A stretch of DNA of 64,000 bases, taken from NCBI RefSeq assembly GCF_003334305.1, contig NZ_QOWS01000003.1. One strand, given 5' to 3'. A program made the position numbers and the translations under genes. Below the pieces are notes generated by a model. The model did no database searches. It was not told the origin of the DNA and worked only from the letters and a program-made list of their open reading frames with translations. This DNA is from Escherichia coli (GTDB lineage: Bacteria; Pseudomonadota; Gammaproteobacteria; Enterobacterales; Enterobacteriaceae). Shown piece after piece: positions 40,775 to 41,157 of the stretch (positions are counted from its first letter, which is position 1; every line of letters begins with the position of its first letter).

Positions 40775-40900
40775 ATGATGAAACGCCTTATCGTTCTTGT
40801 TTTGCTTGCCAGCACGCTGCTCACGGGCTGTAACACCGCTCGCGGTTTCGGCGAAGACATCAAACATCTCGGCAACTCCATCTCTCGCGCTGCCAGCTAA
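40775..40900 (+). CDS. ecnA: Entericidin A, small lipoprotein (41 aa)
   Basis: Hand-translated [41 protein letters not shown]; lipobox LTGC; below ORF-track threshold. Confidence 0.75.
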
Positions 40901-41010
40901 TTTTTCTTCTCTTCCGAAAAATCATCAGATTTCCGTCATTTTTGGCGATGTTGTCTATTATTAATTTGCTATAGGCAAACATAAATAACATTACCTAAAA
41001 GGAAGACGTT

Positions 41011-41157
41011 ATGGTGAAGAAGACAATTGCAGCGATCTTTTCTGTTCTGGTGCTTTCAACAGTATTAACTGCCTGCAACACCACGCGTGGCGTTGGTGAA
41101 GACATTTCTGATGGCGGTAACGCGATTTCTGGCGCAGCAACGAAAGCGCAGCAATAG
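41011..41157 (+). CDS. ecnB: Entericidin B, small lipoprotein (48 aa)
   Basis: Hand-translated [48 protein letters not shown]; lipobox LTAC; paralogue of ecnA. Confidence 0.8.

Follow-up and report, generated by a model that had tools for sequence, protein, structure and literature searches.

The entericidin genes ecnA and ecnB in a 64-kb Escherichia coli window: paralogous small lipoproteins and the standing of EcnA as an antidote

Two short open reading frames lying between efp and sugE/gdx in the E. coli window (the whole stretch of DNA that was analysed, 64 kb in length) are ecnA and ecnB, the entericidin genes of E. coli, which have been described and annotated before, and no evidence against this identity was encountered. 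Taken as a whole, the locus is very probably best explained as the known ecnA/ecnB pair encoding paralogous small lipoproteins, with EcnB damaging membranes only when present in excess and EcnA being dispensable and not an obligatory antidote. The two genes are laid out as follows.

ecnA: 40775-40900, + strand; 41 codons, signal peptide in codons 1-18 (40775-40828), lipobox LTG-C, codon of Cys19 at 40829-40831.
ecnB: 41011-41157, + strand; 48 codons, signal peptide in codons 1-21 (41011-41073), lipobox LTA-C, codon of Cys22 at 41074-41076.

Both reading frames start with ATG and code for proteins of 41 and 48 amino acids, respectively. An earlier note, made from the sequence alone, had placed tandem frames of 41 and 48 codons between efp and gdx, and its coordinates proved exact to the base. 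It had also named them entericidin A and B, in agreement with the RefSeq annotation, the NCBIfam equivalogs and Pfam PF08085. In identical E. coli DNA the RefSeq labels 'lipoprotein antitoxin entericidin A' and 'lipoprotein toxin entericidin B' stand at coordinates that map exactly onto 40775-40900 and 41011-41157, and the proteins are RefSeq WP_000977757.1 (EcnA) and WP_000239596.1 (EcnB). EcnA scored 114.9 bits against NCBIfam NF007319 (cut-off 86) and only 44.5 against the EcnB model, while EcnB scored 121.9 bits against NF007487 (cut-off 94) and only 46.5 against the EcnA model. Pfam PF08085 (Entericidin EcnA/B) matched residues 24-43 of EcnB with E = 5.9e-07 and residues 21-40 of EcnA with E = 7.6e-06. 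The two proteins were 55% identical to each other (BLASTP, E = 4e-14), which bears out the paralogy proposed for them, and a degenerate DNA motif for C-N-T-x-R-G-x-G-E-D-I occurred twice in the 64-kb window, where 100 shuffles gave an expectation of 0.00. Among the solved structures searched, none showed detectable sequence similarity to either product. That both genes escape the ORF track, as had been stated, is plausible, given that both frames fall below the usual 60-aa cut-off.

The gene order in the window was epmB (-), efp (+), ecnA (+), ecnB (+), sugE/gdx (+), blc (-) and ampC (-). It contains the canonical order efp-ecnA-ecnB-sugE-blc-ampC, the position expected of the entericidin family. 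The distance from ecnA to ecnB is 110 nt, both genes being on the + strand, and the gap between ecnB and sugE is 181 bp. The locus is the same as that of E. coli K-12 (Bishop et al. 1998, J Mol Biol 280:583; EcnB is UniProt P0ADB7), with identical proteins, the same neighbours epmB, efp, sugE, blc, ampC and frd, the same lipoboxes, the same internal ecnB promoter and the same terminator. No difference was found, and the window likewise has no ecnR regulator gene between ecnB and sugE. A 561-bp query spanning both genes showed 100% identity with many E. coli chromosomes in RefSeq and was matched in all 5426 of the 5426 complete E. coli genomes, with at least 80% query coverage in 5423. Rearrangements within the species were recorded separately: in strain UPEC129 (L002) both ecnA and ecnB have been lost cleanly, efp and sugE being 101 bp apart, strain 2014C-3061 (L003) carries an IS1 insertion in the ecnA-ecnB spacer, and strain YL3 (hit H45) carries an IS200C insertion in the region.

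The Citrobacter/Enterobacter-type locus resembles the window in the order efp-ecnA-ecnB-sugE-blc, in a near-identical EcnB and in the promoter block of ecnB, but it differs in the ecnB-sugE gap, which measures about 0.9 kb as compared to 181 bp; in addition, the signal peptide of its EcnA is 3 residues longer than in E. coli. Gaps of about 0.9 kb were found in most of the sampled Enterobacteriaceae among the matches listed. In Citrobacter werkmanii (L005, 9775-10374) a divergent 199-aa LuxR/FixJ-type protein, response-regulator-like, is encoded between ecnB and sugE; the NCBIfam model that this protein matched best was RcsA, which at 49 bits remained below the cut-off. This regulator is presumably ecnR. 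Among the matches listed, E. coli, Klebsiella, Kluyvera and Pseudocitrobacter had no regulator gene at this position.

The region upstream of sugE/gdx (41339-41656) also contains a guanidine-II (mini-ykkC) riboswitch aptamer at 41275-41321 on the + strand; its RF01068 score was 50.4 bits, the gathering score being 32. It is preceded by a TG-extended sigma-70-like promoter, TTGAAA-16-CAAAAT, at 41229-41256. The arrangement of this aptamer before sugE/gdx is taken to be the guanidine-responsive control already known for the Gdx guanidinium exporter. The only other Rfam matches at gathering level in the window were three tRNA genes at 27017-27089 (-), 56269-56341 (+) and 56381-56453 (+).

Lipoproteins were recognised by a basic n-region, a hydrophobic h-region and the pattern [LVI][ASTVI][GAS]C within about the first 40 residues, and all of these were present in both proteins. 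The N-terminus of each has 2 basic residues followed by a hydrophobic core (mean Kyte-Doolittle value 2.39), and a PROSITE-type lipobox pattern matched at Cys19 of EcnA and Cys22 of EcnB, in support of the lipoprotein signal peptides with lipoboxes LTGC and LTAC that had been claimed. The lipobox was kept in all orthologues among the matches listed. The predicted mature lipopeptides comprise 23 amino acids for EcnA and 27 for EcnB. Their description as Gly/Ala-rich amphipathic tails was only loosely true, as glycine and alanine together account for 26% of mature EcnA and 33% of mature EcnB, and amphipathicity was clear for EcnA and modest for EcnB. The helical hydrophobic moment of EcnA (18-residue window) was clearly above that of shuffled sequences, none of 2000 being as high, while the excess was more modest for EcnB, with 17 of 2000 shuffles as high.

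From established lipoprotein biology, each precursor would be exported by Sec, modified with diacylglycerol at Cys19 or Cys22 by Lgt, cleaved before the cysteine by signal peptidase II and N-acylated by Lnt. Lol may then pass both proteins to the outer membrane, which would leave an acylated amphipathic peptide of 23 or 27 residues there. The transfer to the outer membrane is predicted from residue +2, which in both proteins is Asn and not Asp, the residue concerned in the Lol avoidance rule, which predicts location only. Such sorting is consistent with the reported occurrence of EcnB homologues in outer-membrane vesicles from E. coli, Shigella and Klebsiella (PMC7296081). The lipidation of EcnB is asserted in UniProt 'by curation', and top-down mass spectrometry recorded only a truncated, non-lipidated fragment of EcnB (PMC12529367).

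ecnB has control elements of its own, a conserved promoter and a strong ribosome-binding site in the 110-nt spacer and an intrinsic terminator behind the gene.

ecnB promoter block: 40951-40975, + strand; TTGTCTATTATTAATTTGCTATAGG, inside the ecnA-ecnB spacer.
ecnB Shine-Dalgarno sequence: 40999-41005, + strand; AAGGAAG, 5 nt before the ATG, anti-SD pairing -5.6 kcal/mol.
ecnB intrinsic terminator: 41169-41206, + strand; 12-bp G+C-rich stem (41169-41196) with a 4-nt loop, followed by the T-run TGTTTTTTCT.

The promoter block was near-invariant in 37 distinct Enterobacteriaceae spacers among the matches listed, with the consensus TTGtCTATnnTTAAgtnGCTATACAC. Downstream of it the Shine-Dalgarno consensus AAAGGAAGA was kept in all 37, and upstream of it the comparison of the spacers revealed conserved TCnTAAAAA and TTTCCGTCA elements. 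Where ecnA was deleted or decayed, the block was nevertheless retained (among the matches listed). It contains two sigma-S-type -10-like elements, CTATTAT (40955-40961) and TGCTATAGG (40967-40975). The sigma-38 holoenzyme uses the ecnB promoter in vitro, and the sigma-70 holoenzyme does so only faintly; a sigma-38-dependent promoter-proximal pause occurs at a -10-like motif among the initial 20 bases of the transcript, where it overlaps an OmpR site (PMC5389655). Going by the numbering in that paper, CTATTAT would be the -10 element of the promoter and TGCTATAGG the pause signal. A scan with the sigma-70 consensus found no promoter for ecnA or ecnB, which fits a sigma-S promoter for the latter. 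According to the summaries of Bishop et al. (1998) in later papers, OmpR represses ecnB at high osmolarity. In comparison to other genera, Escherichia (E. coli, E. albertii and E. whittamii) has six extra bases after GCTATA, at 40974-40979 of the window, and these bases create the direct repeat AACATaaatAACAT at 40978-40991. The repeat could be the OmpR site that overlaps the pause region in PMC5389655.

The terminator had a folding energy of -21.5 kcal/mol (z = -4.8), and none of 200 shuffles was equally stable, so that the strong terminator proposed behind ecnB at 41169-41205 was substantiated. The mRNA levels of the two genes change independently. With a LolCDE inhibitor, ecnB mRNA increased 6.7- to 13-fold alongside other RpoS genes and ecnA remained unchanged (PMC5105897), while the pattern of ecnA and ecnB mRNA in bovine faeces was the opposite of that response (PMC5854682). 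The two genes are therefore regulated separately.

The Shine-Dalgarno pairing of ecnA was weak, at -3.2 kcal/mol compared to -5.6 kcal/mol for ecnB, and the 51 nt between the efp stop codon and ecnA are occupied nearly completely by a hairpin.

Post-efp hairpin: 40727-40760, + strand; G+C-rich, directly after the efp stop codon and 14 nt before the ecnA start.

This hairpin had a folding energy of -22.6 kcal/mol (z = -2.8) and has no U-run in E. coli. It was conserved across genera with compensatory changes among the matches listed, and a T-run making it a proper terminator followed it only in species without ecnA (L017 and L058, among the matches listed). Promoter-like sites were sought in the 51-nt gap and none was found. 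As the gap is so short and has no such site, read-through from efp into ecnA is plausible, and the lack of a T-run wherever ecnA is present suggests the same. A hairpin at 40934-40947 that had been flagged as terminator-like was rejected as a terminator of ecnA, since it was not significant (z = -0.9). With no significant terminator behind ecnA, some read-through from ecnA into ecnB is possible.

For comparison, one genome per species was scanned for the degenerate core motif. This gave at least 120 loci, which form a motif-selected sample and no census. Lipobox-bearing frames of the family were present in all loci among the matches listed, save a few that were cut by the end of the locus, and intact orthologues were found in more than 100 species among these matches. 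The Enterobacteriaceae loci listed usually carried ecnA and ecnB as a tandem pair with a spacing of about 100-110 nt, which followed efp directly and preceded sugE-blc, and the order efp-ecnA-ecnB-(regulator)-sugE-blc was kept in dozens of Enterobacteriaceae among the at least 120 loci. Unusual family members were seen elsewhere in the sample. Five loci from Verrucomicrobiota/Chthoniobacterales and an unclassified MAG (L004, L039, L057, L076 and L083) encode proteins of 59-69 aa with the entericidin core and a tail ending in NPPQWPK, one locus (L104) encodes a 148-aa entericidin fusion with a long C-terminal extension, and a proteobacterial MAG (L075) has a tandem entericidin pair with Cys-containing tails.

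Alleles were compared with the window sequence after the 11 codons of the search motif had been left out. For ecnB, dN/dS was 0.078 and the differences at codon positions 1, 2 and 3 numbered 213, 67 and 811 (50 distinct alleles among the matches listed). For the mature part of ecnA, dN/dS was 0.161 with 74, 61 and 170 differences (31 alleles among the matches listed). Both genes are thus under purifying selection in their + strand frames. EcnB belongs to the small proteins most often detected in E. coli proteomics and was observed by DDA, DIA and PRM mass spectrometry; its copy number in minimal medium reached as much as about 70,000 per cell, and its level increased more than 100-fold in a clpP mutant (PMC12529367). 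Lack of translation, named in the earlier note as an outcome that would speak against the assignment, does not apply to EcnB, which mass spectrometry detects. For EcnA, no direct evidence of translation was found in the literature consulted, and the same proteomics paper contains no mention of it.

While ecnB was intact throughout the Enterobacteriaceae loci concerned, ecnA had been lost in 13 of them among the matches listed, by deletion in 10 (L010, L017, L034, L042, L056, L058, L081, L097, L101 and L119) and by decay to a pseudogene in 3. The promoter block and the Shine-Dalgarno sequence of ecnB were intact in these 13 loci as well. Clean deletions were present in Superficieibacter, Enterobacter asburiae, Phytobacter massiliensis, Pseudescherichia vulneris, Silvania, two Kluyvera species and three others, and the distance from the efp stop to the ecnB start in the deleted loci was 148-225 nt as compared to about 290 nt usually. 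The pseudogenes were as follows.

ecnA pseudogene of Salmonella enterica subsp. arizonae (L107): start codon lost, 11 bp missing from the conserved motif.
ecnA pseudogene of Citrobacter amalonaticus S646 (L120): frameshifting 13-bp deletion.
ecnA pseudogene of Intestinirhabdus alba (L089).

Outside the Enterobacterales most loci among the matches listed, for example those of Halomonas, had a single gene. A solitary homologue is also known from Agrobacterium tumefaciens. Like EcnB, Atu8019 is a small lipoprotein with an entericidin domain that occurs in outer-membrane vesicles, but it lacks an EcnA partner, is exposed at the surface and mediates the docking of vesicles; its overproduction caused no lysis, and it did not disrupt liposomes (PMC7296081). 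Hok/Sok, Ibs/Sib and GhoT/GhoS resemble the entericidins in their short hydrophobic or amphipathic peptides, which damage membranes when overproduced. In contrast to ecnAB, however, the antidotes of these systems are antisense RNAs or an RNase and not a paralogous lipoprotein, and unlike EcnB the toxins Hok, Ibs and GhoT are inner-membrane peptides without a lipobox. A match of EcnA to the Ibs_toxin family (E = 2.5) was meaningless and was discarded.

Chance open frames with an accidental resemblance to a lipobox, arising in a non-coding efp-sugE spacer, would in principle be conceivable, as frames of 40-50 codons are common and 47 ORFs of at least 20 aa were counted in the surrounding 3 kb. 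This explanation is refuted by family-model scores far above the cut-offs, the paralogy of the two proteins, the shared motif, the low dN/dS values (0.08-0.16) with variation at third codon positions, the intact orthologues and the EcnB peptides detected by mass spectrometry (PMC12529367), and its probability is close to nil. Practically the same applies to a functional product that is an RNA or is encoded on the opposite strand. Longer minus-strand frames do overlap ecnB (85 aa at 41009-41266 and 62 aa at 41065-41253), but the substitutions follow the reading frames of the + strand, and this dominance of third-position changes disposes of the antisense frames. RefSeq annotates nothing on the minus strand there, and Rfam gave no match on either strand at E <= 1 save the guanidine-II riboswitch further downstream, with no family match on either strand within the ecnA-ecnB locus itself. 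A small RNA or an antisense product is accordingly considered extremely improbable.

The role of the pair as a true addiction module deserves closer weighing. In such a module for programmed cell death, EcnB would kill in stationary phase unless the obligatory antidote EcnA is present. The earlier note had regarded the toxin/antidote function as established; it has indeed been reported, but its basis is one overexpression study from 1998 that was later questioned (PMC7296081). In that study, as summarised in PMC7296081, overproduction of EcnB raised bacteriolysis and ecnA in cis counteracted this effect (Bishop et al. 1998), and this result is the origin of the names 'lipoprotein toxin' and 'lipoprotein antitoxin' in RefSeq and NCBIfam. 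The genes are also adjacent, co-oriented paralogues, 110 nt apart on the same strand, as is expected of a toxin-antitoxin module. A secreted EcnB homologue of Enterobacter C6-6 was reported to be active against Flavobacterium (Schubiger 2015, as cited in PMC7296081), and EcnB was enriched in slow-growing subpopulations of Salmonella (Claudi 2014, as cited in PMC10643148). Against this, about 70,000 copies of EcnB per cell are present in growing cultures without killing (PMC12529367), ecnB possesses a separate promoter and is controlled independently of ecnA (PMC5389655, PMC5105897, PMC5854682), Halomonas and many other groups have a single gene (among the matches listed), and the Agrobacterium homologue is not lytic (PMC7296081). 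An antidote should not be losable while its toxin gene is functional, but ecnA was absent or decayed in the 13 Enterobacteriaceae loci listed, in which ecnB was intact and strongly constrained, and the Keio deletion of ecnA is viable in E. coli, where the toxin/antidote matter has been called a controversy (PMC7296081). An addiction module is therefore unlikely. As ecnA has been lost repeatedly while ecnB stays at a dN/dS of 0.08, and as the Keio deletion is viable, EcnA is not the indispensable antidote of such a module. The loss of ecnA in other species is no proof against a protective role of EcnA in E. coli, since those species could tolerate the loss by expressing ecnB at a lower level.

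A further reading goes beyond this and denies that a toxin-antidote pair exists at all. EcnB would then be a conserved, abundant and RpoS-driven lipoprotein of the outer membrane or of vesicles with a non-suicidal function in the envelope, and EcnA a young, dispensable paralogue repeatedly lost in Enterobacteriaceae including Salmonella; the evidence leaves this reading evenly balanced. The explanation preferred for the locus as a whole, two known paralogous lipoproteins without an obligatory antidote, would make EcnB an envelope lipoprotein that is abundant in stationary phase and under stress and damages membranes only in excess. EcnA would be a faster-evolving, dispensable paralogue that may dampen EcnB but is not required as its antidote.

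The value of the locus as a discovery is small, as it was described in 1998, is annotated in RefSeq E. coli genomes and has its own Pfam and NCBIfam models. A methodological lesson is that a floor of 60 aa in an ORF track conceals genuine genes, even ones with high expression. What is mildly new is confined to the comparative data, which strengthen the existing doubt about EcnA as an obligatory antidote. They have a bearing on gene naming and on expression studies that count ecnAB as a toxin-antitoxin system. If the non-toxin reading were true, the RefSeq names 'toxin' and 'antitoxin' would be misleading, an idea that has partly been voiced already (PMC7296081).
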